Source: Candidatus Saccharimonadota bacterium
GTDB lineage: Bacteria; Patescibacteriota; Saccharimonadia; Saccharimonadales; UBA4665
Direction of reading: 5' to 3'
Assembly (NCBI GenBank): GCA_016699955.1
Contig: CP064993.1
Location: 810,001-842,000, forward strand
DNA length: 32,000 bases
Positions 17,306-32,000 of this stretch are shown here, piece by piece; the stretch's first letter is position 1, and the number at the start of each line of letters is the position of its first letter. Both the position numbers and the translations under genes were made by a program. Below the pieces are notes generated by a model. The model ran no database searches. It was not told where the DNA came from and worked only from the letters and a program-made list of their open reading frames with translations.

Positions 17306-17331
17306 CGCAGTAAATCTAGTATACTTGTGGT

Positions 17332-17646: not shown

Positions 17647-17816
17647 GCTAGTGTGTTCTTTACCTGGGACGGCTAGATAACAGAGGTGTTTTTCATCTCG
17701 AGCTTTTTTGGGGCGACACGTTTTTTTGTGGCTAGAGGTAGAGCAAACGAACATGACTTAGTTTTGCCGTAGGTTTATTTGCTACGCCAACGCTGAGCGG
17801 TTGGTTGGCTGCCTTG

Positions 17817-18665: not shown

Positions 18666-18753
18666 ACGCTTCCTTTCTGTTTATGTATAGATATATTGTA
18701 CAGGGTTTTGAACCAGACAGAGTGGTTTAAACGGGGTGTACTGGGTTCAATTG

Positions 18754-19011: not shown

Positions 19012-19107
19012 ACAAACATAGTAAGCCTTTTTGGTTGGAAGTGCGAATGCTTACAGCGTAACCTGTAAAATGCATGCTTTTAGCACAGCCTATGGACGTA
19101 CCAAGGA

Positions 19108-19569
19108 CTAAGAACTGATGATGGCTGCCGTTCGCTCCATAGCATAGTTGGGCACGCCGTCGGCATGTACGATACGTTTGCCTGTTAGCTCAAAGCCAAG
19201 TTTTTTAAAAAACGGTATTGCTTCACGGCGAGCATCAAGCGTAAAACCAGTAGCGCCACGAGACTGCGCTTTGGTTAGCGCTGCGCTCAGCATTAGTCTG
19301 ACCACGCCCTTACCCCTGGTTGTGGGAACTACTACCATCTTGCGCACCTCATAAATATTAGGTTCAGTTCCGACCAGGTCAAGCCGCACCGTGCCGACAA
19401 CTTCTCCACAGTCAAATGCTGCCATATGAATAGTCTCTTCTGCAAAGTCTTTTGCAGTCAGCTGGTGGTCGGTCTTGATAAGTCGTGCCGTATCAAGCAC
19501 AACGTGCCGTAGTTGCTGCACTTGTGTTAACTCGCTCATGTCTGGCTGGCGTATTTCGATGTTATCCAT
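19108..19569 (-). CDS. GNAT family N-acetyltransferase
   Basis: Acetyl-CoA motif A region VVVPTTRGKGVVRLML. Confidence 0.8.
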   Translation of the reverse strand: MDNIEIRQPDMSELTQVQQLRHVVLDTARLIKTDHQLTAKDFAEETIHMAAFDCGEVVGTVRLDLVGTEPNIYEVRKMVVVPTTRGKGVVRLMLSAALTKAQSRGATGFTLDARREAIPFFKKLGFELTGKRIVHADGVPNYAMERTAAIISS

Positions 19570-19833
19570 ATGTATTTGAAACTACTTTATGCAGTAATTA
19601 TAACAAGCTCGCGCCCGAGAAATTATCAGACAAATACAGACTACCTATAGCGTGAATGCGCCCTGGATAACCCGATAAATATGTACTGCGGGCTCCCGCT
19701 GGTAGACGTACTTCACAACTATTAACTCAAAGGATGGTGAATGCTATTGCGGCTGGATAGATATTAGGTTAGGAAAGCGCCCCCAAGCCCAAGACAAATC
19801 TTCCAACCCGTAAGCCATGTCATTTGGGTCTAA

Positions 19834-20918
19834 CACGCATTTCGCACTTTAACCCCCAACCTGCATAATTAGTAGCAGGGCGTTAGCCCTGCAAAACTAA
19901 GCAGGATAAAATAAACATGTCTCGATCAAAATGTTCTCGCGATCTGTATTGTGCTTTCTTGGAAGTAACAGCAGATAGATATTCAGCATTGTCACTGAGC
20001 GAAGTTGCTCCAGATGGATCGACGCTATCACATGACAGCATCTCTCGTTGGCTTGCAGACGAAAAGGTACAGCCCAAGGATCTGTGGCAGGCTGCTAAGT
20101 CTGAGGTAGCCTCTAAACCTGGTATCCTTGTCTTTGACGATGTAGTCATAGACAAAAGTCGTAGTGGTAAGACTGAATTAGTAAACTGGCAGTATGCCGG
20201 CTCGAAGCACGACATAACTAAAGGTATTGGTGTAGTTAATGCCTTATGGCAAACCAGTAAAGAAGACTACATGCCGATGGACTACCGTATATGGAATCCG
20301 TCGGAAGATGGCAAGACTAAAAACAACCATTTCAGGGATATGCTGACAGCTGTAAAACAGCGTCAACTTACGCCTGAAATGGTTGTTGCCGACAGTTGGT
20401 ATTCCAGTTTAGATAACCTTAAAGCCACTCGCTCTCATGGCTGGGATTGGGTGATGGGGTTACGTAGTAACCGTTTGGTCAACAAACCACATGTACAGAT
20501 TAAAACCCTCGAGATACCAGATGAAGGTCTGGTCGTACACCTCAAAGGATACGGATGGATCAAGCTATTCCGGTTCGTGACCAAACACGGTCGCACGGAT
20601 TACATTGGTACTAGCAAGCTCGATCTATCCAGGAGCCAAGTCAAAGAGTACTTTGAAAGACGTTGGAGCGTCGAAGTGTTGCATCGTGAACTCAAACAAA
20701 CCTGTGGTTTTACTCGCTGTCTGGCCAACACTGGCCGAGCACAGAGAAACCACATTGGGCTCTCTATGCTCACCTGGATACAAAGACACAAGAGAAGATC
20801 TCAGGACAGGCTAAACAATATACAAAACAGCATGTACCAACAAAAGTGGGAGGTCATAAAACCGAGCATCCAGCTAGCGCTGGCTGCTCGTATGCGTGGT
20901 TAAGGTGCGAAATGCGTG
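19834..20918 (+). mobile_element. IS element copy 2 (1085 bp), inverted relative to copy 1
   Basis: Same inverted repeats, non-coding ends and ORF translations in several frames as copy 1. Flanks TCTAA and TTCTA are not a direct repeat. Confidence 0.9.
19917..20903 (+). CDS. DDE transposase (IS4/IS701-like)
   Basis: 328 aa, identical to the 1523-2509 product. Confidence 0.85.
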   Translation: MSRSKCSRDLYCAFLEVTADRYSALSLSEVAPDGSTLSHDSISRWLADEKVQPKDLWQAAKSEVASKPGILVFDDVVIDKSRSGKTELVNWQYAGSKHDITKGIGVVNALWQTSKEDYMPMDYRIWNPSEDGKTKNNHFRDMLTAVKQRQLTPEMVVADSWYSSLDNLKATRSHGWDWVMGLRSNRLVNKPHVQIKTLEIPDEGLVVHLKGYGWIKLFRFVTKHGRTDYIGTSKLDLSRSQVKEYFERRWSVEVLHRELKQTCGFTRCLANTGRAQRNHIGLSMLTWIQRHKRRSQDRLNNIQNSMYQQKWEVIKPSIQLALAARMRG

Positions 20919-21359
20919 TTCTATAAAGATGATATAGCCAAAAATGACGAAATATTCTTACCTGCCGGTAAGGGCCGCACGGCATTTGTAGATGTCCGTG
21001 ATATTGGTGCAGTCGCTGCAGAAGTGTTTACTGGCACTGACCATATTGGCCAGGCATATACGCTGTCAGGCTCAGAGTCGCTTGATTACTACCGGGTTGC
21101 AGAGCTACTAAGTAGCGAACTAGGGCGAACGATTACATATCAAAATCCTTCTGTGGCATATTATGTAGAACGCCTACGTGCGAACGGCTCACCGGCAGAA
21201 TTTATTAAAGTGCAAAAAATGCTCTATTTTGTCGTTAGGCACAACTTTTCATCAGGTACGAAAAGCGACATAGCAAAGCTTATAGGCCGAGAACCGACAG
21301 CTTTTAAACAATTTGCGCACGACTATGCTCATATTTGGGCAAACAATACCAGCAACTAG
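20919..21359 (+). pseudogene. C-terminal half of an NmrA-like / atypical SDR NAD(P)-binding protein, 5' part missing
   Basis: The frame opens exactly at the IS boundary (the track start GTG lies inside the IS end). No Rossmann GxxGxxG N-terminus is present anywhere in the window. Confidence 0.7.
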
Positions 21360-21558
21360 ATAACCGAGGCATTCCGGTCCAGGGAAAGGGTTTGCTTTTG
21401 AGGGGCTGGGTTAGAACTAAGTCACAGGGGGGAAATGAAAGAACCGCCATTTCTGACGGTTCCGGGGATTACTTGGTAACGGCTGATTTTTTAAGGCGTT
21501 CTAGCACGCTATTCATGGAAGTTTTTAAAACGGTTTGCAGCTGAGGAGGAGCTACAAA

Positions 21559-22332
21559 CTATCCTTTTTTTACTTGTTTCTTAGATTTTAGGAAATCTGC
21601 AGCGCTGTCGATAAGAAAAAGGCTCACGTCGTCCCGCGTCTCCCCTGAGTCATGAAACGGTGTACTGACAATTCCGATTAGTATCATAATGTAGATCAAC
21701 ACAAAACTTATGATGCCTATGATGGCTAAGCTTCCGTAGAAAGGATCAACGTTAGTTAATATTAAAAGACCAATTACGAAAAAAACAATCGACTTCAGCA
21801 GAATACTGGCAGACGGAATGAACTTAATACGTTGAATGTAAGTAACTCGTTTACGATGACGTAACAATAGTAACTGTTGTTGCTTAAGTTTAACTATGAA
21901 ATTCGCAGGTACTCCGGCTTTTTCCATTTGTCCAAAATAAGGATTTAAGGCTCGAATTTTTGAGCTCATTCCTCTAGCTGCATTGCGTGTATCGTCTTCA
22001 AACTTGAACGCAACTTTTTGTAGTTGTGCCCGGAAACCCTCTAAGTCAAATTTTGGATATGATTTATGAATTTCCTCTGCGTCTGCGTACATATCTTCAA
22101 TATTAGCTGCAAATTCTGCTGGAATACGTTCGGATTCTTTGTAGTCTGCAATAGTCGCTGAAAGTAAAAAACCAATTACAAATGTAGCACTTGAAATAAC
22201 TCCATTGTGTAGCGAGCTTTGTTCAATTGGTTCCCAGCCAAAAGCATGAAAGCAGTATTTAACCCCAACAATCACAATCGCTGAAATTATTGATACAAAA
22301 AAGATTTTTAAATCTGTAAGTTTTTGAAACAT
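21559..22332 (-). CDS. Hypothetical membrane protein (two N-terminal and two C-terminal hydrophobic helices)
   Basis: 257-aa ORF, AT-rich. Its topology was read from hydrophobic stretches. Confidence 0.6.
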   Translation of the reverse strand: MFQKLTDLKIFFVSIISAIVIVGVKYCFHAFGWEPIEQSSLHNGVISSATFVIGFLLSATIADYKESERIPAEFAANIEDMYADAEEIHKSYPKFDLEGFRAQLQKVAFKFEDDTRNAARGMSSKIRALNPYFGQMEKAGVPANFIVKLKQQQLLLLRHRKRVTYIQRIKFIPSASILLKSIVFFVIGLLILTNVDPFYGSLAIIGIISFVLIYIMILIGIVSTPFHDSGETRDDVSLFLIDSAADFLKSKKQVKKG

Positions 22333-22583
22333 TTTATTCTTATAATTATACAGGCAAACTCATCACATTTTACTAAAGAATTATACAAATGCAGTTGAAG
22401 GCGGTGGAACTGGAGGAAAAGACCTGAGTAATCTATCAGCAGGTAGCATGGTAGTGGCTAAAGCCATCTTCATCTTATTCTAAAAGAATACCACATAAAT
22501 GATGCTGTATTTTCTTAACTGCACCTCACCGAATCAACTTCGGTTCCCAGCAGTCTGGTTCGCGTCCAGGGCTGGAAGTAAAT

Positions 22584-22607
22584 AAAAAAGCCTCACAAAT
22601 GTGAGGC
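22584..22607 (-). terminator. Intrinsic terminator after Fic cassette
   Basis: GCCTCAC-AAAT-GTGAGGC, followed on the minus strand by a T6 run. Confidence 0.7.
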
Positions 22608-22616
22608 AACTTTATT

Positions 22617-22646
22617 TGGCACGCAACAATATACGGAATTATAACC
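22617..22646 (-). repeat. 30-nt cassette-end box, copy 1 (GGTTATAATTCCGTATATTGTTGCGTGCCA)
   Basis: Aligns without gaps to the other eight boxes. Lies 63 nt after the Fic stop and is followed by a terminator. Confidence 0.6.
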
Positions 22647-22709
22647 GTTATTAATCTAGAGTTTGCTTGCTTTTAGGGTAAATTGCATTGCCGACAAACG
22701 TACTTAATA

Positions 22710-23261
22710 CTATTCCTTATAGTTGTCTGGCTCTTCGTAATAGTACGATTGTTCTATACCTTTCATGAATACTTCCCGATCATCGATTTTGTCGGTTAAT
22801 GCTGTGCGTAGTAGCTCACGAATCTCTAAATCATTCACAGGACTGCGCTCCATAGCGTTTAAGTAGTCGTTTTTATTGATTTTTTCCCAGTCAATACACT
22901 GTTTCAGATTTTTCTTGAATATCAAATCTAGCCAGATACGCGTACTACGTCCGTTGCCTTCCATGAAAGGATGCGCTATATTCATTTCTACGTATTTTTT
23001 AACAATCTCTTCAAAAGTCGTTTCTGGCATTTTATCTATTTCGGCAAGGCCACTAACCAAATAAACGGCGGATGCAAATGTAAAGCCACCTTTGCTAATG
23101 TGCTTGGAACGAATTTTCCCAGCAAAGTCGTATAGACCACCAAAAAGATACTCGTGAATTTGTCGTAAACCATTTATTGTGCCGACCTCAAAAGCCGACA
23201 AGTCCGAGCTACCAAAGAGTTCTACGGCCCGCTGTTTGCTTATTTCGTCAATGTTTGGCAT
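22710..23261 (-). CDS. Fic family protein, class III-like (C-terminal inhibitory helix)
   Basis: Fic motif [12 protein letters not shown]. About 183 aa from ATG 23261. C-terminal [10 protein letters not shown] carries an SxxxE inhibitory-type motif. Confidence 0.9.
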
Positions 23262-23267
23262 GACTAA

Positions 23268-23276
23268 ATTATAGCA
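23268..23276 (-). promoter_or_regulatory. Extended -10 TGCTATAAT, 6 nt before ATG 23261 (leaderless)
   Basis: Read on the minus strand: TTGTGCTATAAT-TTAGTC-ATG. Confidence 0.55.
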
Positions 23277-23500
23277 CAAAACGGCGGATTATTTATAAGA
23301 TCAACCCCTGTTAAAATGGCAACATCAAAGAAATTGAAACAAGTTATAGTCATTACTAAATCCAAGAAAATCTAGACAATAAAGTAGTGTTTACCCTATA
23401 ATACAGTCTGTAAAAGACGCATACGGGACTGAATCTGACCCAGAGGCGTCTTTTCTGATTAGTTGGAGTTGTGTTGATTTCATTTCCAGACCGCCTATAT

Positions 23501-23531
23501 AAAAAGTCAGAACCGAATTATCAGTTCTGAC
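23501..23531 (-). terminator. Intrinsic terminator after SDR cassette (GTCAGAAC hairpin family)
   Basis: GTCAGAAC-N10-GTTCTGAC with a T5 run on the minus strand. Confidence 0.7.
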
Positions 23532-23543
23532 TTTATCTTTTTT

Positions 23544-23573
23544 AGCTCGGCTCTGCGATACGTCTCTCGAACT
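23544..23573 (-). repeat. 30-nt cassette-end box, copy 2 (AGTTCGAGAGACGTATCGCAGAGCCGAGCT), diverged
   Basis: Lies 6 nt after the SDR stop, in the same position relative to a terminator as the other boxes. Confidence 0.45.
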
Positions 23574-23579
23574 TTTTTG

Positions 23580-24323
23580 CTACTGATTTAAATCGTTGTA
23601 GCGATGTTCGTATTCACCAGTAGCAACCGCATCAGTAAAATATTTCACTCGCTCTACTTGTATTTCATCTATTTCAGGATTGTTTTCAAGTAAATTTGTT
23701 ACTTCGGTAATGAAATCAGCAAGGGGCATAGCGTTGGGGTCGTTAGCTTGTTCTGGACTGATTAGTTCAGTTTGTACATAAGGCGGAATAAGCTCGATGA
23801 CTTGAATGCCACTATTTTTTAGCTGTGTACGAAGAGACTGCGTGTAAGAGTGTATTGCAGCTTTTGTTGCGCAGTACGATGGAAAGCTTGCACCTGGGAT
23901 AAATGCTAATCCCGAAGAAACAGTAACTATTACAGCGTCGTTGTTACCCTCAAGAATTGGAAGCAATTTAGAATTTAACTCCATCTGCCCGATTAAGTTA
24001 GTGGCGATTATGGACTTTGCAGTCTGTATATCATTGTCACCAATCTTTTCTGCTTTCATCATTCCGGCATTGAGTATCAGTACATTGAGATCAGGGTATT
24101 TTTCATATACTTGAGCGACTAGGGCATCTATTGATTCGCTAGTTGTAACATCGAGCTCTAAAGTCTCCATGCCCTCGTTAGCTTTAGCGACTTCCTCAAG
24201 TCTTGCCTTGTTTCGTCCCGCAATGATAACTTTATTACCTTTACGATGGAACATTTCGGCCAAACCTTTCCCAATTCCAGAGCCACCGCCAGTAATTAAG
24301 ATTGTATTTTTAAACATTTTCAT
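23580..24323 (-). CDS. Short-chain dehydrogenase/reductase (classical SDR)
   Basis: TGGGSGIG cofactor motif, NAG motif, catalytic YCATK. Confidence 0.9.
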   Translation of the reverse strand: MKMFKNTILITGGGSGIGKGLAEMFHRKGNKVIIAGRNKARLEEVAKANEGMETLELDVTTSESIDALVAQVYEKYPDLNVLILNAGMMKAEKIGDNDIQTAKSIIATNLIGQMELNSKLLPILEGNNDAVIVTVSSGLAFIPGASFPSYCATKAAIHSYTQSLRTQLKNSGIQVIELIPPYVQTELISPEQANDPNAMPLADFITEVTNLLENNPEIDEIQVERVKYFTDAVATGEYEHRYNDLNQ

Positions 24324-24329
24324 ACTTTT

Positions 24330-24338
24330 ATTTTAGCA
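24330..24338 (-). promoter_or_regulatory. Extended -10 TGCTAAAAT, 6 nt before ATG 24323 (leaderless)
   Basis: Minus strand reads TTGTGCTAAAAT-AAAAGT-ATG. It shares the TTGTGCTA prefix with the Fic promoter. Confidence 0.55.
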
Positions 24339-24481
24339 CAATCACCGATGGGCTAGATGCTCTTGTCTGTATATGGCGCACAACTAAAGACAGGTCGTGG
24401 GTACAGGTCTGTTCTTGGGGTACCTGGTTGCCATATAGGGAAATGGTTACTGACGAAACGCACCATCAGGGGTAATAAATC

Positions 24482-24503
24482 AAAAACCGTCCTTTCGGAC
24501 GGT
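24482..24503 (-). terminator. Intrinsic terminator inside long spacer module L1
   Basis: ACCGTCC-TTTC-GGACGGT with a T5 run on the minus strand. Confidence 0.6.
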
Positions 24504-24610
24504 TCTGATGGTTTTGGTCAGTTGTTAAAGCTGACATTCTTCTTGTCTGACCAAGGAGTTAATGTGGGAACAGGTCACGGAACCTGGTCACTACTTTTCA
24601 CTGCTTGGTT

Positions 24611-24640
24611 TGGCTCCTCGCAATAGAGGAAGTTATGACT
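24611..24640 (-). repeat. 30-nt cassette-end box, copy 3 (AGTCATAACTTCCTCTATTGCGAGGAGCCA)
   Basis: Lies 47 nt after the stop at 24688. Confidence 0.65.
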
Positions 24641-24687
24641 GTAATTAAGAGGGATTATTCTGGAGTACTATAAAGACACTTCGCAAC

Positions 24688-25066
24688 CTACGTTTCGAGA
24701 TATTGCAATGGAACCGCAGCATGCTGGTCTTCTGTAAACCGATGGCCATTATCAATTGATAAAGTTGGATCGATTCCTATCGCGTAGCCGGGGTTTCGCG
24801 ATATGAGATTTGCTGCTTCTGCCGCTACGCATATTTTAGTGTAAGCATCAAGTACTACTGCTCCTCCGCGCTTTTTTAGCAGTGCGTCCTTATAAGCGAT
24901 TTCCTTCCGTAATATGTCAAGCGGCTTTTTGATGTCAGGAAAGAGTATAAGGCTGACATAATCGCCAAAAGTATTCAAAAACGGATCCGAGTCTAAGGCC
25001 TTTCGCCTCGTTTGTGTATCCGCCCAAAGATCGGGTGCGCCGGGACCGCTGAAATATAGGTTTTGC
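24688..25066 (-). pseudogene. 3' part of a 175-codon cassette gene split by the IS at 25067-26174
   Basis: The frame is open up to the IS boundary. It joins in frame to 26175-26331 once the IS and one GGTTTTGC copy are removed. Confidence 0.7.
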
Positions 25067-26174
25067 GGCTTAAGACCAAAATCTGGTTGCTGCTAAAGCT
25101 TTAAAACAAGGCCAAAACAAATACGGACAGGCTCGCCTCATGTATTCTTGTAGTTGCAAAACTAAGTAAGGAAAAAACTAATGAGAGCTAAGCACTGTCC
25201 GTATTTCAATTGTACCAACGTTAAGAAAAATGGGGTGAGAAATAGCAAGCAAAGATACTACTGCTGTTCCTGCGAGGCGTCTTGGATTAACAAAGCTCGA
25301 CCGATTCGTAGCCTTAACAAACTGTGGGATCAATATGCATTTGATGGTCTGACGGTAGCAAAATTAGCTCGTAATTGCAGTAAAAGCAGAGGCTATATCC
25401 AGACCAGACTAAACGCCTATGTCCCTTTACCCATAACTCAAAAACCTCATACCGTAGCCGTCATCATGGATGTTACCTACTTTGGCAGCTGGGGCATTTT
25501 GGTTGTCATCGATCCATACGCGAACACAAGCTTAGGAGAGAACGTCGTATTGTACTACGCAGAGGTTGAAGGCACTGAAAAGACCCGTGACTACGTGATC
25601 GCAACAGATACGGTCGAGGCTATGGGCTACAGTATCATTGCTGCTACGATTGACGGCAGACGAGGAGTGCGGAACATGCTTGAATCCAAAGGCATACCCG
25701 TCCAGCATTGTCAGTTTCATCAGCTCATGACCATTACCCAATGTCTGACGAAGCGACCCAGACTGACTCAGAACATCGAGCTGCGAGCCATTGCTCTGAC
25801 ACTCAGTAGAACGGGCGAGATGGCGTTTGAAGAGGCTCTGGCCGGTTGGTACAGCAAACACGGCGAATGGCTCAAGGAACGCGATGCAGTCACGGGAAAG
25901 TTCTCGCATGAACGTACCAGACGAGCCTACTTTAGTTTGATTAGGAATCTACCCTATTTGTTCACCTTCCGGCATGATTATCTACAAGAATACACTCAGC
26001 AGACCGGCAAGCAAATCGCCAATACAACCAGCCCATTAGACGGCAGATTTGGAGTCTGGAAAGACAGACTCATACCCCACAGAGGGTGCTCAAAAAGGCG
26101 TACTTTTATATTGCTTTGTAGTTTCTTCTCTAGAACAACAGATTAGGGTAGCAACCGAAAAATGGTCTTAAGCC
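25067..26174 (+). mobile_element. IS element (1108 bp), zinc-ribbon DDE transposase, IS1/IS1595-like
   Basis: 12-bp perfect terminal inverted repeat GGCTTAAGACCA. An 8-bp direct repeat GGTTTTGC flanks it at 25059-25066 and 26175-26182. Confidence 0.85.
25181..26146 (+). CDS. Transposase with N-terminal zinc ribbon (IS1 InsA-like / IS1595-like)
   Basis: CPYFNC...NGVRNSKQRYYCCSCEASW zinc-ribbon pattern, followed by VIMDVTYF and ATIDGRRG acidic motifs. Confidence 0.8.
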   Translation: MRAKHCPYFNCTNVKKNGVRNSKQRYYCCSCEASWINKARPIRSLNKLWDQYAFDGLTVAKLARNCSKSRGYIQTRLNAYVPLPITQKPHTVAVIMDVTYFGSWGILVVIDPYANTSLGENVVLYYAEVEGTEKTRDYVIATDTVEAMGYSIIAATIDGRRGVRNMLESKGIPVQHCQFHQLMTITQCLTKRPRLTQNIELRAIALTLSRTGEMAFEEALAGWYSKHGEWLKERDAVTGKFSHERTRRAYFSLIRNLPYLFTFRHDYLQEYTQQTGKQIANTTSPLDGRFGVWKDRLIPHRGCSKRRTFILLCSFFSRTTD

Positions 26175-26331
26175 GGTTTTGCTGATAAATTACGGGATTG
26201 CCACGTGCCAGAGTTCTGTGCAGTTTCTCCGACAGGTACTCATAATAACCCGCTGGCATTGAGGCCGATGGCCTATGTACACCAGTCTCAAGATCATAAA
26301 CGCCATTCACATGCTTAACAACAGCCAACAT
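26175..26331 (-). pseudogene. 5' part (52 codons) of the cassette gene split by the IS
   Basis: MLAVVKH...GNPVIYQQN, then the reading runs into the IS end and stops after 10 IS-encoded codons. Confidence 0.7.
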
Positions 26332-26338
26332 ACATAAT

Positions 26339-26347
26339 AAAATACCA
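26339..26347 (-). promoter_or_regulatory. Extended -10-like TGGTATTTT, 7 nt before ATG 26331
   Basis: Overlaps the 3' arm of the preceding terminator hairpin (ATACCAC/GTGGTAT). Confidence 0.35.
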
Positions 26348-26370
26348 CATTAAGTGGTATTTGTAAATAT

Positions 26371-26547
26371 CTTGGCTCCGGGGACTGGGTCGCTACGCTC
26401 TTCCGCTCAATAGTGCTCGAAGCAAGCTTCTGCGCGCTATATCGCTACACCGAACTAGTGACCACGCTCACGTTGTTCGCTTGTCGCTAGGTCAAACTCA
26501 ATCTCGAGATCCAAATTAAAACCGCCTCATTCGAGACGGTCATAATT
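26371..26547 (-). repeat. Structured spacer module A
   Basis: The first 85 nt are identical to module C (28197-28281). On the minus strand it ends in CCCCGGAGCCAAG. Confidence 0.8.
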
Positions 26548-26577
26548 TGGCTCACAACGATAGAGGAAGTTATAACC
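26548..26577 (-). repeat. 30-nt cassette-end box, copy 4 (GGTTATAACTTCCTCTATCGTTGTGAGCCA)
   Basis: Lies 32 nt after the stop at 26610. Confidence 0.75.
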
Positions 26578-26609
26578 ACAATTAAGCAAGACTCATATGC
26601 ATAAAATTC

Positions 26610-27236
26610 TTAGTCGAACCAGTGCTTGTGCATCTCTGACATGAATTCCTTTGTAATCGGAAAACCAGATTTGTCACCAATAACAGAATCAATCCCGCAC
26701 TTGGGGCATAGCGCGCAGTCATTATCATCGACCCATTCTTCGATTTTGTTGGGTGTGAATATATCTCCACAATAGAAACAGCCACATTCTTTGCTGGCGA
26801 GAACCTCTTCCCAATGCCTGGCGGTGTGCGTATGGGCCTCACGAATGTCTTTAGGCATAGCGGATTTCGCAGTTTCTAGTTGTTGGATTAGCTCGTCAAA
26901 CTCTTCTTGTTCTTTTTGTGAAATAGGTTGATCGGTCAACGAGGGAGTTTCCTTGGGTAGGGGTTTGCGTGTGTGGGATGCCATATCCTGACTACATGCC
27001 CCAAATGTCCTAAAGTTCTTCTTTGCTTGATTTAAGGTAAGTCCGTGATTTGGGCCGTAACATGGTTCGTCTGGGTTCTTTTGATGATCATCGTCTATAC
27101 TGTCGTCTTCCCGGAAACACACAGGGCATATATCATACATGCCCTTATGAGCGGCATCTATGGTAAGAAAACCGCATACTTCACATGCGGCACGGTTCTT
27201 AATATTAGGAGCTTTGGCACGCTTGAACCAGTTCAT
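26610..27236 (-). CDS. Cysteine-rich fusion protein: N-terminal CPCC-type domain plus C-terminal CxxC...CxxC zinc-ribbon domain
   Basis: CEVCGF...YDICPVCFREDD...GPNHGLTLNQAKKNF at the N-terminus, and CGCFYCGDIF...EWVDDNDCALCPKCGIDSVIG at the C-terminus. Confidence 0.75.
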   Translation of the reverse strand: MNWFKRAKAPNIKNRAACEVCGFLTIDAAHKGMYDICPVCFREDDSIDDDHQKNPDEPCYGPNHGLTLNQAKKNFRTFGACSQDMASHTRKPLPKETPSLTDQPISQKEQEEFDELIQQLETAKSAMPKDIREAHTHTARHWEEVLASKECGCFYCGDIFTPNKIEEWVDDNDCALCPKCGIDSVIGDKSGFPITKEFMSEMHKHWFD

Positions 27237-27242
27237 AAATGT

Positions 27243-27251
27243 AGTATAACA
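27243..27251 (-). promoter_or_regulatory. Extended -10 TGTTATACT, 6 nt before ATG 27236 (leaderless)
   Basis: Minus strand reads CTGTTATACT-ACATTT-ATG. Confidence 0.5.
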
Positions 27252-27281
27252 GTTCTAACGTTGCAGGCTCAGCTTACCCCA

Positions 27282-27321
27282 AACCAAACTAACAGAGACT
27301 TTCGTCTCTGTTAGTTTGGTT
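27282..27321. terminator. 18-bp perfect hairpin (AACCAAACTAACAGAGAC / GTCTCTGTTAGTTTGGTT, loop TTTC)
   Basis: Exact reverse complement arms, located directly after module B on the minus strand. Confidence 0.6.
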
Positions 27322-27326
27322 CTAAC

Positions 27327-27492
27327 CTTGGCTCGGGGGACTGGGCAGCACACACTAATCTATGCGCCGAGTAAACTCGGGCATTAGTCTAATGACCGAA
27401 CCCAGCGGCCTGACTCCGCTTTGCGGAGTGGTCGCAGGTTAAAGCCAGTCTCAAAGCAAGAAAAAACGAGCCCAAAAGGACTCGTCTTTTCT
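27327..27492 (-). repeat. Structured spacer module B
   Basis: Its last ~63 nt are part of an 81-nt run (27430-27510) identical to 28309-28389; the run continues 18 nt into the adjacent box. On the minus strand the module ends in CCCCCGAGCCAAG. Confidence 0.8.
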
Positions 27493-27522
27493 TGGCTCAC
27501 AACGATAGAGCAAGTCATAACT
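27493..27522 (-). repeat. 30-nt cassette-end box, copy 5 (AGTTATGACTTGCTCTATCGTTGTGAGCCA)
   Basis: Lies 4 nt after the stop at 27527. Confidence 0.75.
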
Positions 27523-27526
27523 GCGA

Positions 27527-28135
27527 TTAAATTAGATTTTGCCCATTGATGCCCGAAAAGACTATATTAAAATAGTGATTTGTGTGCTGGACAAAACGCT
27601 CTTTGAATTCATTCCTTGATACGATTTCTTCGCTGTTCTTCGCCTTTATCCATTCAACTCCATCGACCTCTCCATCTGGAAAAGTGAAGGTCATATCATC
27701 TCTGTATTCAACGGTATAAACGAACCTTAATTCATCTTTGTGACTGTCTTCTGTTTTTCTCTGATAATGTTCAACCCCAGCAAAATAAAGATCGTCTGTG
27801 TTAATTGAAATACCTAATTCTTCTTTTGTTTCTCGTATTGCTGCTGCAACCTCATCTTCATTCAGGTCAATGTGTCCAGCTGCAGAAATATCTAGTAATC
27901 CTACTTTGTAGTCAACTTTTGGTGCAGCCTTTTGGAATAATAGGTATAGTTCATCATTTTCTTTTTTCCAAATCCAAATGTGAGCTGCTGCATGTGGTAT
28001 GCCACTAGAAAATGCACGTTCATGGCCTGTGCCTTTTTGTGGAACCTGCGTGCCATATTTAGTATAAATTTGCCAATCAATCATTCGTACATTATACCCC
28101 ACAAAAAACATGGGCATTTTATCGTTCGGTTTCAA
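27527..28135 (-). CDS. NUDIX hydrolase (start uncertain: TTG 28135, ATG 28117 or ATG 28111)
   Basis: Nudix box GHIDLNEDEVAAAIRETKEELGI. Confidence 0.8.
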   Translation of the reverse strand: MKPNDKMPMFFVGYNVRMIDWQIYTKYGTQVPQKGTGHERAFSSGIPHAAAHIWIWKKENDELYLLFQKAAPKVDYKVGLLDISAAGHIDLNEDEVAAAIRETKEELGISINTDDLYFAGVEHYQRKTEDSHKDELRFVYTVEYRDDMTFTFPDGEVDGVEWIKAKNSEEIVSRNEFKERFVQHTNHYFNIVFSGINGQNLI

Positions 28136-28151
28136 TTCTTGTCTGGGTATG

Positions 28152-28182
28152 AAAAAGTCAGAACCATTTTCACAGTTCTGAC
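28152..28182 (-). terminator. Intrinsic terminator (GTCAGAAC hairpin family)
   Basis: GTCAGAAC-N10-GTTCTGAC with a T5 run on the minus strand. Confidence 0.7.
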
Positions 28183-28196
28183 TTCATCTGTTCCAG

Positions 28197-28371
28197 CTTG
28201 GCTCCGGGGACTGGGTCGCTACGCTCTTCCGCTCAATAGTGCTCGAAGCAAGCTTCTGCGCGCTATATCGCTACACCGAACCAGCGACCTACGCTCACTT
28301 TGTTCGCTGGTCGCAGGTTAAAGCCAGTCTCAAAGCAAGAAAAAACGAGCCCAAAAGGACTCGTCTTTTCT
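28197..28371 (-). repeat. Structured spacer module C (mosaic of A-left and B-right)
   Basis: 28197-28281 is identical to 26371-26455, and 28309-28389 is identical to 27430-27510. Confidence 0.85.
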
Positions 28372-28401
28372 TGGCTCACAACGATAGAGGACGTTATAAC
28401 C
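28372..28401 (-). repeat. 30-nt cassette-end box, copy 6 (GGTTATAACGTCCTCTATCGTTGTGAGCCA)
   Basis: Lies 35 nt after the stop at 28437. Confidence 0.75.
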
Positions 28402-28436
28402 GCCATTATGCTGGATTTAACGGTGTCCAGCGTTGC

Positions 28437-28655
28437 TTAAGCTGGTTTTAACGAAATTATATTATCCATGCCCATGCTTGATACTTTCATTTGAGATAAA
28501 TTATTCACCAACTCCATGCATTCTTTAGAATGTTTTGAATCTTCATTGATAATATAGCTTGCTTGATAGAATTTATCACCACTTCCACTTACCTGATTTA
28601 ATTTCACTTTCAGGGATCTCCTTACTTTTGGGCAGTGTTCCTGTAGCCCATTCAA
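28437..28655 (-). CDS. Hypothetical small ORF (72 aa), overlaps the next ORF out of frame
   Basis: ORF only. It may be the frameshifted continuation of 28576-28821. Confidence 0.3.
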   Translation of the reverse strand: MNGLQEHCPKVRRSLKVKLNQVSGSGDKFYQASYIINEDSKHSKECMELVNNLSQMKVSSMGMDNIISLKPA

Positions 28656-28821
28656 ATTCTCTAATTACCTGCGCTGCAACTTCTTCATCCCAATCTTTTT
28701 TCGAGCGACCCTGGACTTCCTTATTCATAACTTCATGAAACTGCTTATCAGGACTATTATGTGGTCCACGATTTGCTGAGAGAATTTCTTTTAGCCGTTT
28801 ATGAAATCGATCTTTATTCAT
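28576..28821 (-). CDS. Hypothetical small protein (81 aa), translationally coupled to the hydrolase gene
   Basis: Its start overlaps the hydrolase stop (ATGAATAA, 8-nt overlap). Confidence 0.45.
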   Translation of the reverse strand: MNKDRFHKRLKEILSANRGPHNSPDKQFHEVMNKEVQGRSKKDWDEEVAAQVIREFEWATGTLPKSKEIPESEIKSGKWKW

Positions 28822-29392
28822 TCAAAATGTGTAGCAATTTCTCTTTCAAGTCTTCAAACTCTGTGTACCCAGCTCTAGCGTTAAAGTGCCCTGCATTAGG
28901 TATAAACGACAGCTCAACTCCTAAGTGCTTTGCTAACTCTTTGCCATTGTCTAGTCCCACATAAGGGTCATCATCGGACTGGTATACTATGAAGTCTTTG
29001 GCTTTCTGCTTAATATTGTCCCACTCAAAATCAAAGCCACTAAAGGCACTGTCGCGATCATAATTGAGAATTGGCCTAACACCTATTGGTGCGCCGACAA
29101 AGAATGCTGCCTTAATAGGGTGTTTTAACTTTTCTAAAACACGAAGTGTAAAGATTCCGCCTAAGCTATGTCCAATAATAATTGTATTTTCCGTAATCTT
29201 ATCTCCGTAGTCTTTCAAAACATCAACCCACTCAGAAATCTTTGCAGGAACAACGGGTGGCGACGGAAACTGCGGAACAGTAACTTCGTATCCTTTTGCT
29301 TCAAGCTCGCCTTTTAGCCAAGGAAACCAGTTTTCCTGCGGGTGGCCTTCTGTGCCATGAAAAATAAAAATGTTTGGTTTATCTTCAGTCAT
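28814..29392 (-). CDS. Alpha/beta serine hydrolase, YdeN/RBBP9-like
   Basis: 192 aa with nucleophile elbow IIGHSLGG, a late DDD...GHF pattern, and typical family size. Confidence 0.85.
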   Translation of the reverse strand: MTEDKPNIFIFHGTEGHPQENWFPWLKGELEAKGYEVTVPQFPSPPVVPAKISEWVDVLKDYGDKITENTIIIGHSLGGIFTLRVLEKLKHPIKAAFFVGAPIGVRPILNYDRDSAFSGFDFEWDNIKQKAKDFIVYQSDDDPYVGLDNGKELAKHLGVELSFIPNAGHFNARAGYTEFEDLKEKLLHILNE

Positions 29393-29398
29393 TACATA

Positions 29399-29407
29399 AT
29401 AATAACA
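29399..29407 (-). promoter_or_regulatory. Extended -10 TGTTATTAT, 6 nt before ATG 29392 (leaderless)
   Basis: Minus strand reads CTGTTATTAT-TATGTA-ATG. Confidence 0.5.
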
Positions 29408-29495
29408 GATACGAACACATTGCTGGTTTCAAATCTAGGGTGCCTATATAAAAATCAGAACTAAATTAACAGCTCTGACTTTGTCTACTATGGTC

Positions 29496-29525
29496 TGGCT
29501 CACACTAGCAGACGCATTGCGAACC
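29496..29525 (-). repeat. 30-nt cassette-end box, copy 7 (GGTTCGCAATGCGTCTGCTAGTGTGAGCCA)
   Basis: Lies 48 nt after the stop at 29574. A degenerate GTCAGAAC-family hairpin follows at 29455-29478. Confidence 0.65.
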
Positions 29526-29573
29526 GCCTGTCTGGATTTTGATAAAAGTAATTTGAATGAAATAAAGGCAATC

Positions 29574-29750
29574 TTAGCGACGGCTGCTTAGTTTATTCAC
29601 TAACTTATTGTATTGCCCTTTTGTCAAAAAGACCCTGTGGATGTTTGGCTTACTTGTATTTCCAGTAAGTGTCGCTTTTGTCGTTATGCCCCAGTCTACA
29701 ATCGTCATGTTAGTTAGGTCTACTTCAACGAAGTAATACTCTTTTTTCAT
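29574..29750 (-). CDS. Hypothetical small protein (58 aa), below the ORF-track cutoff
   Basis: ATG at 29750 with SD GGAGG 9 nt upstream. A cassette-end box and hairpin follow it. Confidence 0.5.
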   Translation of the reverse strand: MKKEYYFVEVDLTNMTIVDWGITTKATLTGNTSKPNIHRVFLTKGQYNKLVNKLSSRR

Positions 29751-29812
29751 GCTGTTCAGCCTCCATCTATATCTATTCTACACCCAGCTTTGGTAAATCT
29801 ATACCGCAAAGC

Positions 29813-29837
29813 AAAAACACCTTCCTTTCGGAAGGTG
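29813..29837 (-). terminator. Intrinsic terminator directly after the tRNA-3'-end-like sequence
   Basis: CACCTTCC-TTTC-GGAAGGTG with a T5 run on the minus strand. Confidence 0.7.
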
Positions 29838-29845
29838 CTTATACT

Positions 29846-29870
29846 TGGCTCCGGGGAAAGGATTCGAACC
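29846..29870 (-). other. tRNA 3'-end-like sequence (T-loop, acceptor 3' strand, discriminator, CCA); no complete tRNA
   Basis: Minus strand reads GGTTCGAATCCTTTCCCCGGAGCCA. The upstream sequence does not form the matching T-stem, acceptor stem or other arms. Confidence 0.6.
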
Positions 29871-29961
29871 AATAATAATCACCGCCTAATTTTAGGTTCG
29901 TTTTAGCTTATCTTACCCCTGTTATATGTCAACTTTTATTGTGGTTTTTAATGTCTGAATG

Positions 29962-29970
29962 TGATATCAT
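29962..29970 (+). promoter_or_regulatory. Extended -10 TGATATCAT, 6 nt before ATG 29977 (leaderless)
   Basis: TGATATCAT-TAGAAC-ATG. Confidence 0.5.
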
Positions 29971-29976
29971 TAGAAC

Positions 29977-30153
29977 ATGAATAAGCCACAGCTAAAACGC
30001 ACCAAAAACGTTAATCGAGCTGTTGCCAATGAACGACTCGAGGGCTTGAAGGTATCTGAAGATTCCCGAAAAATTGCTGGCGAATATATTTCTGGTAAGG
30101 CTTCTGCAAAGCAAGCCGCCTCTAAAATACGAGCACGATACGGGGTGCTGTAA
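29977..30153 (+). CDS. VbhA-like antitoxin of a class I Fic toxin (58 aa), below the ORF-track cutoff
   Basis: RAVANERLEGLKVSE resembles the VbhA inhibitory helix (consensus (S/T)xxxE(G/N); here NERLEG). Its stop overlaps the Fic start (TAATG). Confidence 0.75.
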   Translation: MNKPQLKRTKNVNRAVANERLEGLKVSEDSRKIAGEYISGKASAKQAASKIRARYGVL

Positions 30154-30752
30154 TGTCCGATTTTGTCGATCCCTACCTGGATGACAAGACCGGCATCTTA
30201 CGCAATCTACTTAATGCCGGGACGAATGATGAGTTAAAAGATCTAGAGGCTCAAATAGTTTTTGCCAACGAACTAGAACTCGAAGAAATCGGAATAAAAC
30301 GAACTAGTGACCTATCTGAATTACTGGCAATTCACAAACAGCTGTTCGGTAACGTGTACGATTGGGCTGGTGATATACGTACTGTCGATATTAAGAAAAA
30401 TAGCGATAATGCCGAGTATTTCTTACCTGTTAGCAAGATATTAGGTGCGTGCGAGTATGTTTTTGCTGAGCTTACCAAGGAAAACTATTTGAAAAATTTA
30501 GATAAAGAAAAATTCGTAGAACGTTTGGCCTATTTTTATGACCAGCTAAACTATGTTCACCCGTTTCGTGAAGGCAACGGTCGTACGCAACGAGTCTTTT
30601 GGACAAGAATTGCTCACGGTGCTGGATATGAGATAGGTTGGGACGAAGTAGTTGGCAATGAAAACGACGAAGCATCACGCATCGCCGCAGAAAAGATGGA
30701 TTTATCTCCACTTACTGCGATGTTTGCAAAGATTATTAGCTCACTACAATAA
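30153..30752 (+). CDS. Fic family toxin (class I, VbhT/FicT-like)
   Basis: Fic motif HPFREGNGRTQR. Translationally coupled to the upstream small antitoxin ORF. Confidence 0.9.
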   Translation: MSDFVDPYLDDKTGILRNLLNAGTNDELKDLEAQIVFANELELEEIGIKRTSDLSELLAIHKQLFGNVYDWAGDIRTVDIKKNSDNAEYFLPVSKILGACEYVFAELTKENYLKNLDKEKFVERLAYFYDQLNYVHPFREGNGRTQRVFWTRIAHGAGYEIGWDEVVGNENDEASRIAAEKMDLSPLTAMFAKIISSLQ

Positions 30753-30994
30753 ACTCTTGTGCCAGCAGTAAAACTTTTCGGTCAGGGAACTCGGTCTGGT
30801 TTCTGTCTGTCCAGCTTCCATAGGGGCGACTGGTCAAGGTTCGAACCAGAATAACAGAGGTAAATACGAAGAACCACCATTTCTGGTGGTTCTAACGTTT
30901 ATCGGGTTCGAACTGCTTTCGAACCTTCCGCAAGGCTAATCAGAGAAGTAAAACCTTGTCATGGAACCCGGTCTGGGTATTTCTCTGCTTGGTC

Positions 30995-31024
30995 TGGCTC
31001 CAGCTAGCGGATGAGTTGTGAACT
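30995..31024 (-). repeat. 30-nt cassette-end box, copy 8 (AGTTCACAACTCATCCGCTAGCTGGAGCCA)
   Basis: Lies 81 nt after the stop at 31106. Long module L2 follows. Confidence 0.6.
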
Positions 31025-31105
31025 GTTAGTATCTATTTTGATAAACACAAGCTACTAGTAATTGGGGACGTTTTAACGAGCGAAAGTTATTACACATGCT
31101 AACTG

Positions 31106-31753
31106 CTATTTTTGCACATCACGCTCATGATCGAGCTGTGTCTGTGTTGGCCTCTGCATTAAAGGAGCCATCTTATCATGAGGTATATATATACTATTAA
31201 GTGTTTTCCGTAAATCCACATAGCTAATAATATTGATGGGTATTCCGAGTAAATTTCCAATCTCAGTTGCTTCGGCATCAAGCGGAACGCTCGCCTTATA
31301 GAAAGGAAGTCCGAATCTATTGATATTCCACTCCACCATATACCTATCTGCTATTTCAATCTGTTCGTCAAAAACTACATTCAGGTATAGGGTACACCAC
31401 CTATCACCAAAAAAAATATGCTCGTTTCCATCGAAACCCTTCAAGTAGTCCAGACTGCGTACGTCTGTACGGTCAAGCCGCCTAATCCATCGCTTGTCGC
31501 CAATCATTCGCTTGTATTCAATAGTGATGGTGCCGTCCGATGCCATTGTGACTGTACGAGTCTCGACATACTTCACCATGAATATACCGAAGACGGTTAA
31601 TAATAAGCCAACTACAATAAAAGGCAGTTCTTGGGTATAGAGGCCAATCGCTGCAAGCACAACACCAACGCTACCGGCACTTAGACCATAAACAAATTGT
31701 AGGGTGTTTTTTTCGATAATTTGGAGTGTGCTGCCATTTTTTTGGAAAATCAT
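31106..31753 (-). CDS. Hypothetical membrane protein (two N-terminal helices plus soluble domain)
   Basis: 215-aa ORF with hydrophobic segments at about residues 20-60. Confidence 0.6.
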   Translation of the reverse strand: MIFQKNGSTLQIIEKNTLQFVYGLSAGSVGVVLAAIGLYTQELPFIVVGLLLTVFGIFMVKYVETRTVTMASDGTITIEYKRMIGDKRWIRRLDRTDVRSLDYLKGFDGNEHIFFGDRWCTLYLNVVFDEQIEIADRYMVEWNINRFGLPFYKASVPLDAEATEIGNLLGIPINIISYVDLRKTLNSIYIPHDKMAPLMQRPTQTQLDHERDVQK

Positions 31754-31759
31754 ACGGTT

Positions 31760-31768
31760 ATCTTAGCA
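31760..31768 (-). promoter_or_regulatory. Extended -10 TGCTAAGAT, 6 nt before ATG 31753 (leaderless)
   Basis: Minus strand reads GTGCTAAGAT-AACCGT-ATG. Confidence 0.5.
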
Positions 31769-31844
31769 CGGCTATACTAAGATATACCATCCGTGCATCA
31801 CTCCGCGCTGCGGTAGCCGCTTTTAGCGTAACCTTCAAAACAAA

Positions 31845-31881
31845 GAAAAAAGCCTAGGCAGTGAATGCCTTGGCTTTTTTC
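31845..31881. terminator. Bidirectional intrinsic terminator
   Basis: AGCCTAGGCA-GTGAA-TGCCTTGGCT (one mismatch), flanked by A6 and T6 runs. Confidence 0.65.
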
Positions 31882-31883
31882 TT

Positions 31884-31913
31884 TGGCTCCGCTTACAGGT
31901 CACGAATTTTTAA
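31884..31913 (-). repeat. 30-nt cassette-end box, copy 9 (TTAAAAATTCGTGACCTGTAAGCGGAGCCA), diverged
   Basis: Ends in GGAGCCA, is followed by a terminator, and sits after an ORF that runs off the window end. Confidence 0.45.
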
Positions 31914-32000
31914 CAGGGTAAAACGCTACAAATGAGTTACTACATGTGGTTTTTGGCGAACCATTCATGTTCTATAGCACTTCTTGGAGAGTCAACAACC

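Follow-up and report, generated by a model that had tools for sequence, protein, structure and literature searches.

What are the three spacers of about 175 nt that lie on the minus-strand side of small genes in the chromosome of a Candidatus Saccharimonadota bacterium, and why are they patchworks of each other? The spacers, referred to here as modules A, B, and C, were found by reading and with a repeat finder between 25.5 and 29.5 kb of a 32,000-nt stretch (assembly GCA_016699955.1, contig CP064993.1, positions 810,001 to 842,000), which we call the window. Saccharibacteria live as ultra-small epibionts, with few recognized mobile elements in their genomes of about 1 Mb, and their acquisition of strain-specific genes is poorly understood. 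We find that the modules are best explained as a conserved structured element of Saccharibacteria that stems from the 3' region of tRNA-Asn(GUU) and sits in an array growing at the 3' end of that gene. With a probability of roughly 45%, we further read them as portable attachment-site elements of tRNA-Asn type within a site-specific cassette array, in which exchange at shared tRNA-derived segments would explain the mosaicism.

Origin of the modules from tRNA-Asn

Each module ends with the last 17 to 20 nt of the Saccharibacteria tRNA-Asn(GUU), that is, the 3' strands of the T stem and the acceptor stem, followed by G and CCA. This derivation, overlooked in the preliminary description of the locus, was found by scanning a genome collection with TTGGCTCNGGGGACTGGG. 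In Saccharibacteria genomes this sequence matches where tRNA-Asn(GUU) ends, with CCAGT from the T-stem 3' strand and CCCCGGA from the acceptor, then G and CCA. In plus-strand coordinates the left end of each module is the reverse complement of this tRNA end, and CTTGGCTCCGGGGACTGGG is the reverse complement of the 3' ends of intact tRNA-Asn genes in 10 or more Saccharibacteria genomes. Both AGGTCGCTGGTTCG and CCCAGTCCCCGGAGCCA of module C are identical to the tRNA-Asn(GUU) of relatives, such as those at the related loci L009 and L024. Direct repeats of 19 to 20 nt, CCCAGTCCCC[G/C]GAGCCAAG, occur at 26371, 27327, and 28197, as is typical of attachment-site (att) repeats, and the unit ends throughout the array are the shorter GAGCCA core of this repeat. 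Matches to an 18-nt pattern in cyanobacteria and other phyla were discarded as chance occurrences inside coding genes.

Read in the tRNA sense, which is the minus strand of the window, a module follows the ...GAGCCA end of the prior unit and begins with a bidirectional terminator hairpin bearing an A-run and a T-run. Next comes a 5' arm, GAGAYTGGNTTTGAACCAGCGAC, which is an inverted copy of tRNA positions ~45 to 69 and agrees with the antisense tRNA at 18 of 21 positions in modules B and C and at 17 of 19 in L111. A variable apical hairpin separates this arm from GGTCGCTGGTTCG, identical to the variable loop, the T-stem 5' strand, and the start of the T loop of the tRNA. The T loop of the tRNA copy is cut by an insert of 49 to 59 nt that folds into its own hairpin, and after the insert the module closes with (A/G)(T/C)CCAGTCCCCGGAGCCA. 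The tRNA positions present are only ~44 to 57 and 59/60 to 76, plus the inverted copy. Inserts are of two types: type 1 (modules A and C) with the core GCGCAG-GAAGCTTGCTTC-GAGCAC, and type 2 (module B, L058, and L089) with a longer hairpin around GCCCGAG..CTCGGCGC. As modeled, the folded strand can rebuild a duplex resembling the T-arm/acceptor region of tRNA-Asn, with the insert as a third branch.

Several familiar identities were tried and rejected. ARAGORN finds no tRNA or tmRNA in the window, and the modules have no D arm, anticodon arm, or acceptor 5' strand; the readings as a tRNA, a tmRNA, or a permuted tmRNA were dropped. Rfam gives no match over the window at the gathering threshold and only chance-level matches at E<=10 over 24 to 32 kb, none of them on the module core; on this basis small ribozymes, SRP, 6S, Y RNA, and the other known RNA families were set aside. 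A miniature inverted-repeat element (MITE) or another repeat derived from an insertion sequence is contradicted by module ends that are not inverted repeats of one another and by copies that occur only in tRNA-Asn arrays and, by covariance model, nowhere else in the window. A miniature IS200/IS605-type element and sso/CS-6-like motifs (TAGCGA) were considered for the insert, which gives no sign of independent mobility. A phage or plasmid origin was dismissed, as blastn of module, box, and leader gave no match in phage and plasmid collections; a single pattern match in a viral contig (L079) was a false positive.

A conserved branched fold

A metagenome scan yielded 39 loci with about 32 true modules. 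With the covariance model R1, 56 copies are found across 52 sources, namely the window and 51 related loci, and several sources hold two or three copies. The window contains exactly three full copies (26373-26510, 27329-27458, and 28199-28337), all on the minus strand. Among the 51 copies with a classifiable upstream neighbor, this neighbor is directly a tRNA-Asn 3' end whose T loop looks intact in about 19, another module in about 6, and in most of the rest a box ending in ..GCCA. One copy (L091:185-347) stands behind a different tRNA gene (3' end ...GGGTTCGAATCCTACCACCCCAGCCA) and still ends in the tRNA-Asn 3' sequence.

The structure shared by the family is a branched fold of about 130 to 150 nt with five helices. 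In plain MAFFT alignments the overall covariation score is 0.325, compared with 0.138 for shuffled and 0.05 to 0.10 for slid controls. The central 5-bp hairpin of the insert is paired in 96 to 98% of cases with compensatory changes in four to five of its five pairs, the adjoining helix covaries at 21-49, 22-48, 24-46, and 18-51, and helix P2 is 89% paired in the full-length MAFFT alignment. The alignment fitted with R1, which is biased toward the structure to which it was fitted, has 79% of cells pairing (67% when shuffled, 29 to 39% when slid) and double changes in 38 of 43 pairs. Within type 1 the core is a 5-bp hairpin with a CUUG-type loop, whose flanks CAG and CGAGCA are unpaired and nearly invariant. 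The preliminary description argued for a folded RNA or single-stranded DNA function, and covariation supports a folded single strand, which may be RNA or DNA.

Both arms of the module track the resident tRNA, as is seen in L087. There the tRNA-Asn differs (T stem GCCGG/CCGGC, acceptor CCCAGGA), the modules end in GTCCGGCCCCAGGAGCCA, and their 5' arms carry the matching changes, with GAACCGG/CCGGTTC in P2 and three double changes in P1.

The family fold also reassigns the hairpins that had been placed at an equivalent internal position of each module, which are not equivalent. In module A, CTAGTGAC/GTCGCTAG is the family helix P2, a copy of the tRNA T stem paired with its own inverted copy; in module B, ACTCCGC/GCGGAGT is the variable apical hairpin P3; and in module C, ACCAGCGA/TCGCTGGT is an alternative register of P2, for which the family register is AACCTGCGAC/GTCGCTGGTT. 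The proposed pairing of GACTGG with a distal CCAGTC is the family helix P1, and here the pairing is held in lineages with a different tRNA-Asn.

Mosaicism and exchange between modules

String comparison confirms the three modules as mosaics with exact shared runs. The 85-nt identity between module C and the left part of module A (26371-26455 and 28197-28281) is as first reported, and the run shared by modules B and C, given earlier as 81 nt from 27430 and 28309, is exact and measures 82 nt (27429-27510 and 28308-28389). This second run crosses the module junction and enters the box for its first 18 to 19 nt, in agreement with the 18 nt of the preliminary description. On the minus strand, module C combines a left half of the B kind with a right half of the A kind: it has exactly the terminator and 5' arm of B, and exactly the insert and 3' end of A. 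The central 26 nt of C (28282-28307) have few differences from A and are unrelated to B, and since they match neither exactly, C is a third sequence and not a collapse of A and B.

The same patchwise exchange that had been suspected here recurs as half-wise reassortment across the 56 family members, in which the left half comprises the terminator, the 5' arm, and P3, and the right half the insert and the tRNA 3' end. L114 and L105 are 89% identical in the left half and 35% in the right half, and L115 and L091 are 31% identical in the left half and 92% in the right half. The left half of module A is 92% identical to that of L038 and 88% to that of the first L009 module (L009m1), with differing right halves. 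The block identical in A and C spans exactly from GTTCGG to the GAGCCAAG junction, and the block identical in B and C starts within the box, crosses GAGCCA, and stops where the P2 5' strand ends. Exchange between copies therefore seems to take place at the tRNA-derived segments common to all of them, whether by a homologous or a site-specific route.

Units and junctions of the cassette array

Modules and gene cassettes are separate units of the array, each starting with a terminator-like hairpin and ending in ...GAGCCA(A/G). On the minus strand the order in the window is a box, the terminator and module C, leader-NUDIX-box, the terminator and module B, leader-CPCC-box, the terminator and module A, and a further leader, and the array continues beyond the right end of the window. 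What had been called the box is the conserved 3' end of the neighboring gene cassette and lies outside the module; across loci the box family reads GTTC.AA..TCCAC.A...G followed, after the junction, by GAGCCA. The repeated plus-strand motif TTGGCTC (nine occurrences between 24.6 and 31.9 kb, and 13 in the whole window versus 4 expected) is the ...GAGCCAA end common to all units of the tRNA-Asn-anchored array, which the first reading had missed.

The same layout is found in relatives. The complete genome L009 has tRNA-Asn followed by two modules and then two cassettes, and all longer loci have co-oriented open reading frames (ORFs) of 100 to 250 aa downstream of tRNA-Asn. Upstream of each array ORF lie a hairpin and a TGnTATAAT-like -10 element, and downstream of it lies a box ending in GAGCCA. 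An intact tRNA-Asn stands at the array end in L009, L058, L086, L104, L112, L113, and L117; the window, whose array runs off the right edge, has none.

One pair of related contigs from the same sample marks the junction directly. L080 and L101 carry an identical terminator and module, preceded by tRNA-Asn in L080 and by a cassette box in L101, and their identity starts at GGAGCCA, so that a cassette is present or absent exactly at this point. A crossover in the T loop as the cassette boundary was rejected, as the two contigs differ between the T-loop-like motif and GGAGCCA, although such a crossover is a possible route for the reassortment of module halves. The two ends of the L101 contig (1,726 nt) overlap exactly over 123 nt, and the contig therefore represents a 1,603-bp cycle in which a module, a leader, three ORFs (one NUDIX-like), a box, and a terminator follow one another. 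This is a circular molecule or else a cassette between two identical modules.

A portable attachment site as the favored reading

We propose a site-specific recombination system that is encoded elsewhere in the genome and has the ...GAGCCA end common to the units as its crossover core. Each module would serve as a second, portable attachment site of tRNA-Asn type, with cassettes inserted or excised beside it as well as beside the tRNA itself. The form recognized would be the folded one, more likely as single-stranded DNA than as RNA, in which the single strand would rebuild an attB-like duplex with the insert as a branch. The mosaic of A, B, and C would then come from exchange between copies at the shared GGTTCG region and the GAGCCA junction. 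A DNA-level role is favored because no promoter is predicted for the modules and a terminator stands before each of them. One may also picture an independent integron-like gene capture in Saccharibacteria, in which the CCA end of tRNA-Asn would be the insertion site, the cassettes would carry a tRNA-end-like box, the foldback module would be a portable site recognized by its structure, comparable to attC or CTX attP(+), and a non-IntI recombinase would act in trans; this wider picture is doubtful.

Several points weigh against a site-specific system. We find no integrase or recombinase in the window, where a Pfam scan of ORFs gave only DDE transposases of insertion sequences, nor in about 300 kb of related loci, covered by inspecting the larger ORFs by eye and by a crude motif screen, and the recombinase is thus hypothetical. 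Cassette mobility is deduced from one presence/absence comparison together with the architecture of the array, and the part played by the fold in recombination is likewise presumptive. The cassette boxes share with the tRNA end only GAGCCA and a loose motif. Minimum free energy (MFE) z-scores of the window copies on the sense strand are unremarkable (+1.1, -1.25, and -3.0), and thermodynamic support was abandoned, the values for A and C not being significant; with z-scores this weak, the support for the structure is comparative and not thermodynamic. The excess of G-T over A-C mismatches (3:1) is just what neutrality predicts, given the base composition of the 5' arm, for which reason we dropped strand assignment from these mismatches. 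Gene conversion alone could make the arms track the tRNA without selection for pairing.

Ideas of a guide RNA, either as a TnpB/Cas12k-like scaffold with a 3' guide matching the tRNA end or as an IS110 bridge RNA, were rejected: no such protein is encoded nearby, and the supposed guide is paired in P1.

Alternative explanations

The module may instead be a structured, tRNA-like noncoding RNA of about 140 nt, in which P1 mimics the stacked acceptor and T stems and leaves a free GCCA end. It would be read through from tRNA-Asn or an upstream cassette and trimmed by tRNA enzymes, serving for instance as a decoy for enzymes or toxins that recognize the acceptor/T arm of tRNA-Asn, with copies inside the array as passengers. 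This would fit covariation-supported helices beside nearly invariant unpaired nucleotides, the CUUG-type loop of the central hairpin and the GNA triloops on P6 (both common RNA motifs), a P1 that can be extended until only GCCA or CCA is unpaired, a module orientation that is always that of the tRNA, and the copies directly behind a tRNA-Asn 3' end. An abundant RNA is somewhat disfavored, however, because there is no predicted promoter and a strong terminator lies directly upstream; this bidirectional terminator precedes every copy, and the interval between its T-run and P1 has no space for a promoter. Copies that occur at the tRNA-Asn array only and vary in number (0 to 3 or more) are unlike a housekeeping RNA, and two very different insert types within one genome, unremarkable MFE z-scores, and the absence of an Rfam family match even at E<=10 speak against it as well. 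On balance we consider an RNA function unlikely.

Somewhat less probable still are inert scars, P-arm and attR remnants of small elements that integrated serially into tRNA-Asn and whose pseudo-T-loop was later interrupted. Gene conversion and homologous recombination, in bacteria that are naturally competent, would have spread and homogenized such scars, whose apparent structure would only reflect an inverted duplication in their ancestor. An island strewn with direct repeats of a tRNA 3' end is the classic signature of serial integration, as in tycheposon islands, and ordinary tRNA-Asn fragments of other classes lie in the same loci (L026, L073, L081, and window positions 29844-29870). The variation in P2 is mostly one-sided, the wobble statistics are neutral, and arms that track the resident tRNA are what gene conversion would yield. 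Scars should decay rather than covary, however, and the element is kept across diverged lineages whose cassettes share no similarity, with invariant unpaired positions beside stems that have many compensatory double changes, and with insert position and fold held in two unrelated sequence types.

As to the other fragments, the arrays of L026, L073, and L081/L106 contain tRNA-Asn 3' fragments of the classical kind, whose start lies in the anticodon stem (..AACCACTAGGTCGCTGGTTCGA..), and from their sequences other integrase classes seem to use tRNA-Asn in these bacteria too.

A true integron, with the modules or boxes as attC sites recombined by IntI, was the first reading tried, and junction position and architecture make it very improbable. 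Small co-oriented cassettes in an array, a single reversed cassette of toxin-antitoxin type (Fic), imperfect palindromes between cassettes, and AAC...GTT at the base of P2 (TTTGAAC/GTTCGG) do recall one. Unit boundaries, however, fall at GAGCCA, both in L080 versus L101 and in the box alignment, and not between G and TT of an R' box, and the AAC/GTT of P2 lies within the module. R''/L''-L'/R' boxes separated by an unpaired spacer are absent. The module folds as a three-way junction of about 140 nt and carries a terminator besides, unlike the two-box attC hairpin of 57 to 141 nt with its extrahelical bases, and the cassettes have their own promoters and terminators. No match to intI or Phage_integrase is found in the window, and the genes beside tRNA-Asn in related loci are unrelated (e.g., smpB), with no integrase among them.

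Least probable of all is a mosaic produced by collapsed or misjoined repeats in the assembly, for although exact 82- to 85-nt repeats are within the range that confuses short-read assemblers and modules make cycles in assembly graphs, as L101 shows, the unique central segment of C matches neither A nor B, different unique genes flank each module, and half-wise reassortment is also seen in independent assemblies, including a complete genome.

Comparison with known systems

The closest likeness of the proposed attachment-site array is to tRNA-gene element arrays (accretion, cis-mobilizable elements, and tycheposons). To our knowledge, a foldback element with an inverted tRNA copy and a T-loop insert is not described for such arrays. 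Both have an island anchored at a tRNA gene, partial tRNA 3' ends repeated directly between units, older units presumably displaced from the tRNA by newer ones, and cargo units without an integrase of their own. The tycheposon islands of Prochlorococcus, for example, are tRNA-anchored tandem integrative elements with partial tRNA repeats (bioRxiv 10.1101/2020.12.28.424599). In contrast, the units described here are single genes of 0.5 to 1.5 kb, none of the loci examined shows an integrase, the repeat that all units share shrinks to GAGCCA(A), and the partial tRNA lies inside the conserved foldback element.

With integrons, especially sedentary chromosomal ones, the locus has in common a long series of small and diverse accessory cassettes in one orientation. 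Both also have structured imperfect palindromes between the cassettes, better conserved in fold than in sequence, as well as a reversed cassette of toxin-antitoxin type and a fixed insertion point at the array head. The locus differs from integrons in having no detected IntI, no R/L box architecture, a junction at the CCA end of a tRNA gene, cassettes with their own promoter and terminator, cassettes that lack a module, and gene-cassette ends (box plus leader) that are not palindromic. We know of no integrons in Saccharibacteria.

As in the attP(+) site of CTX phage for XerCD and in the bottom strand of attC, inverted target copies on one strand fold into a duplex-like mimic with bulges and branches; this likeness is an analogy only, with no single-stranded intermediate, Xer, dif-like site, or phage genes found here. 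The pdif (Xer) modules of Acinetobacter plasmids also consist of one to three genes with short recombination sites and no recombinase of their own, and are shuffled between replicons; the pdif sites, however, are 28-bp XerC/XerD sites in alternating orientation on plasmids, whereas the repeats here are direct, derived from a tRNA end, and chromosomal. Inspection of the junctions by eye revealed no dif-like palindrome, no formal search having been made. Lastly, tRNA-like RNAs (the tRNA-like domain of tmRNA, the bacterial Y RNA module, and acceptor/T minihelices) likewise have a helix that corresponds to acceptor and T stems stacked on each other and that ends in GCCA, but the module differs in having no D arm, anticodon arm, ARAGORN or Rfam match, or promoter, in being linked to arrays, and in varying in copy number.

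Gene content and setting of the array

Between about 19 and 32 kb of the window the genes are all small and mostly on the minus strand, in a series broken up by insertion sequences. Matches in the Pfam scan assign to the cassettes GNAT, two Fic genes, SDR, Cys_rich_CPCC, NUDIX, and Ser_hydrolase. The GC content is 0.41 to 0.45 in the array (18500-32000) and 0.47 to 0.50 in the housekeeping part (1-18500). Low GC and a cargo of GNAT, Fic, NUDIX, SDR, and hydrolase genes, typical accessory genes by sequence, suggest an accessory character of the array. The housekeeping part comprises purB, pyrF/E/D, purA, a DEAD helicase gene, and yitT, and the GC skew flips sign between the two parts, tracking gene orientation. 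The features of the array are listed in Table 1.

Table 1. Coordinates of modules, boxes, cassettes, and tRNA fragment in the window (CM, covariance model)
Feature	Position	Strand	Evidence or remark
Module A	26371-26546	minus	CM match, 122 bits, E=1e-26
Module A, terminator	26546-26513	minus	
Module A, P1 5' strand; P2 5' strand; P3	26508-26496; 26495-26483; 26482-26463	minus	
Module A, P2 3' strand (tRNA variable-loop/T-stem copy ending GTTCGG)	26462-26450	minus	
Module A, insert; tRNA-Asn 3'-end copy ACCCAGTCCCCGGAGCCAAG	26449-26391; 26390-26371	minus	
Type-1 insert, conserved core GCAGAAGCTTGCTTCGAGC	26415-26433	minus	Recurs in module C at 28241-28259
Module B, type 2 insert	27327-27491	minus	CM match, 69.8 bits
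Module B, terminator; P1 5' strand; P2 5' strand	27491-27458; 27455-27443; 27442-27430	minus	
Module B, P3 (ACTCCGC/GCGGAGT); P2 3' strand	27429-27411; 27410-27396	minus	
Module B, insert (long hairpin around GCCCGAG..CTCGGCGC)	27395-27347	minus	
Module B, tRNA-Asn 3'-end copy GCCCAGTCCCCCGAGCCAAG	27346-27327	minus	
Module C, mosaic copy	28197-28370	minus	CM match, 118 bits
Module C, terminator; P1 5' strand; P2 5' strand	28370-28337; 28334-28322; 28321-28310	minus	
Module C, P3; P2 3' strand	28309-28289; 28288-28276	minus	
Module C, insert; tRNA 3'-end copy	28275-28217; 28216-28197	minus	
Box, 3' end of CPCC cassette, GCTTAATTGTGGTTATAACTTCCTCTATCGTTGT then GAGCCAA, ending in the shared junction	26547-26587	minus	Repeat D2
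Box, 3' end of NUDIX cassette	27492-27532	minus	Repeat finder, box alignment
Box, 3' end of cassette with ORFs 28437-29392	28371-28411	minus	Repeat finder, box alignment
Box variant ...GGCGGTTCGCAATGCGTCTGCTAGTGT then GAGCCAG; next leader hairpin directly after, no module between	29495-29535	minus	Repeat D6
Box variant ...AGTCATAACTTCCTCTATTGCGAG then GAGCCAA; followed by other spacer kind, 24330-24609	24610-24650	minus	Repeats D2, D8
Box variant ...GTTAAAAATTCGTGACCTGTAAGCG then GAGCCAA; followed by terminator 31841-31885	31883-31920	minus	Repeats D4, I4
Cys_rich_CPCC protein, 208 aa, single-gene cassette between modules B and A	26610-27236	minus	PF14206, 2e-22
Leader hairpin of CPCC cassette	27282-27321	minus	Repeat finder
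NUDIX hydrolase, single-gene cassette between modules C and B	27527-28135	minus	PF00293
Leader hairpin of NUDIX cassette, AAGTCAGAAC..GTTCTGACTT	28155-28184	minus	Same leader in L009, L049, L088, L105, L113
Predicted promoter of NUDIX cassette	28145-28116	minus	Promoter prediction
Cassette right of module C	ORFs 28437-29392		
Fic cassette, the only one on the opposite strand to the other cassettes	29844-30752		Small upstream ORF 29978-30152, then 30153-30752
tRNA 3' fragment with intact T loop, GGTTCGAATCCTTTCCCCGGAGCCAAG, at end of reverse-oriented Fic cassette	29844-29870	minus	Weak CM match

The leader hairpin, AAGTCAGAAC-N8-GTTCTGACTT, is kept in sequence before unrelated cassettes and across lineages. 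It lies at 23497-23530, 28155-28184, and 29452-29485 of the window and also in the five related loci of Table 1, as a portion of an ~85-nt 5' end common to cassettes. At its end the reversed Fic cassette carries a tRNA fragment whose T loop is intact (GGTTCGAATCCTTTCCCCGGAGCCA), an att remnant of a class other than the modules; a homologous Fic cassette in the same relative orientation is present in L087 (70% identity over 900 nt).

The spacers 24330-24650 and 30760-31045 are of a different inter-cassette kind. They have 44- to 56-nt repeats in common (D6, D8) and hold GGTTCGAAC-like motifs and an internal terminator, with no match to the module covariance model.

Two insertion-sequence copies of 1,085 bp (1508-2592 and 19834-20918), 100% identical and inverted about 17 kb apart, encode a DDE_Tnp_1 transposase of 328 aa, and the second copy abuts a truncated NmrA-like ORF (20916-21359). 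This inverted pair could drive inversion of the intervening segment. Another kind of insertion sequence lies within the array at 25066-26175, with 26-nt inverted repeats (25066-25091 and 26150-26175) and a 321-aa ORF (25181-26146) that has a Cys-rich N terminus and no Pfam match.

Significance for Saccharibacteria

The literature that we searched has no description of this locus or element, although such an absence is no proof of novelty. The element adds a candidate structured nucleic-acid family absent from Rfam. An array of self-contained single-gene cassettes anchored at tRNA-Asn, together with a conserved element that mimics the tRNA, would be a dedicated gene-capture locus in this phylum. 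Its testable targets would be GAGCCA as the defined junction, the structured element that the covariance model describes, and a predicted trans-acting recombinase. If the fold is recognized as single-stranded DNA, it would be the third independent folded-strand recombination site, after attC and CTX attP.

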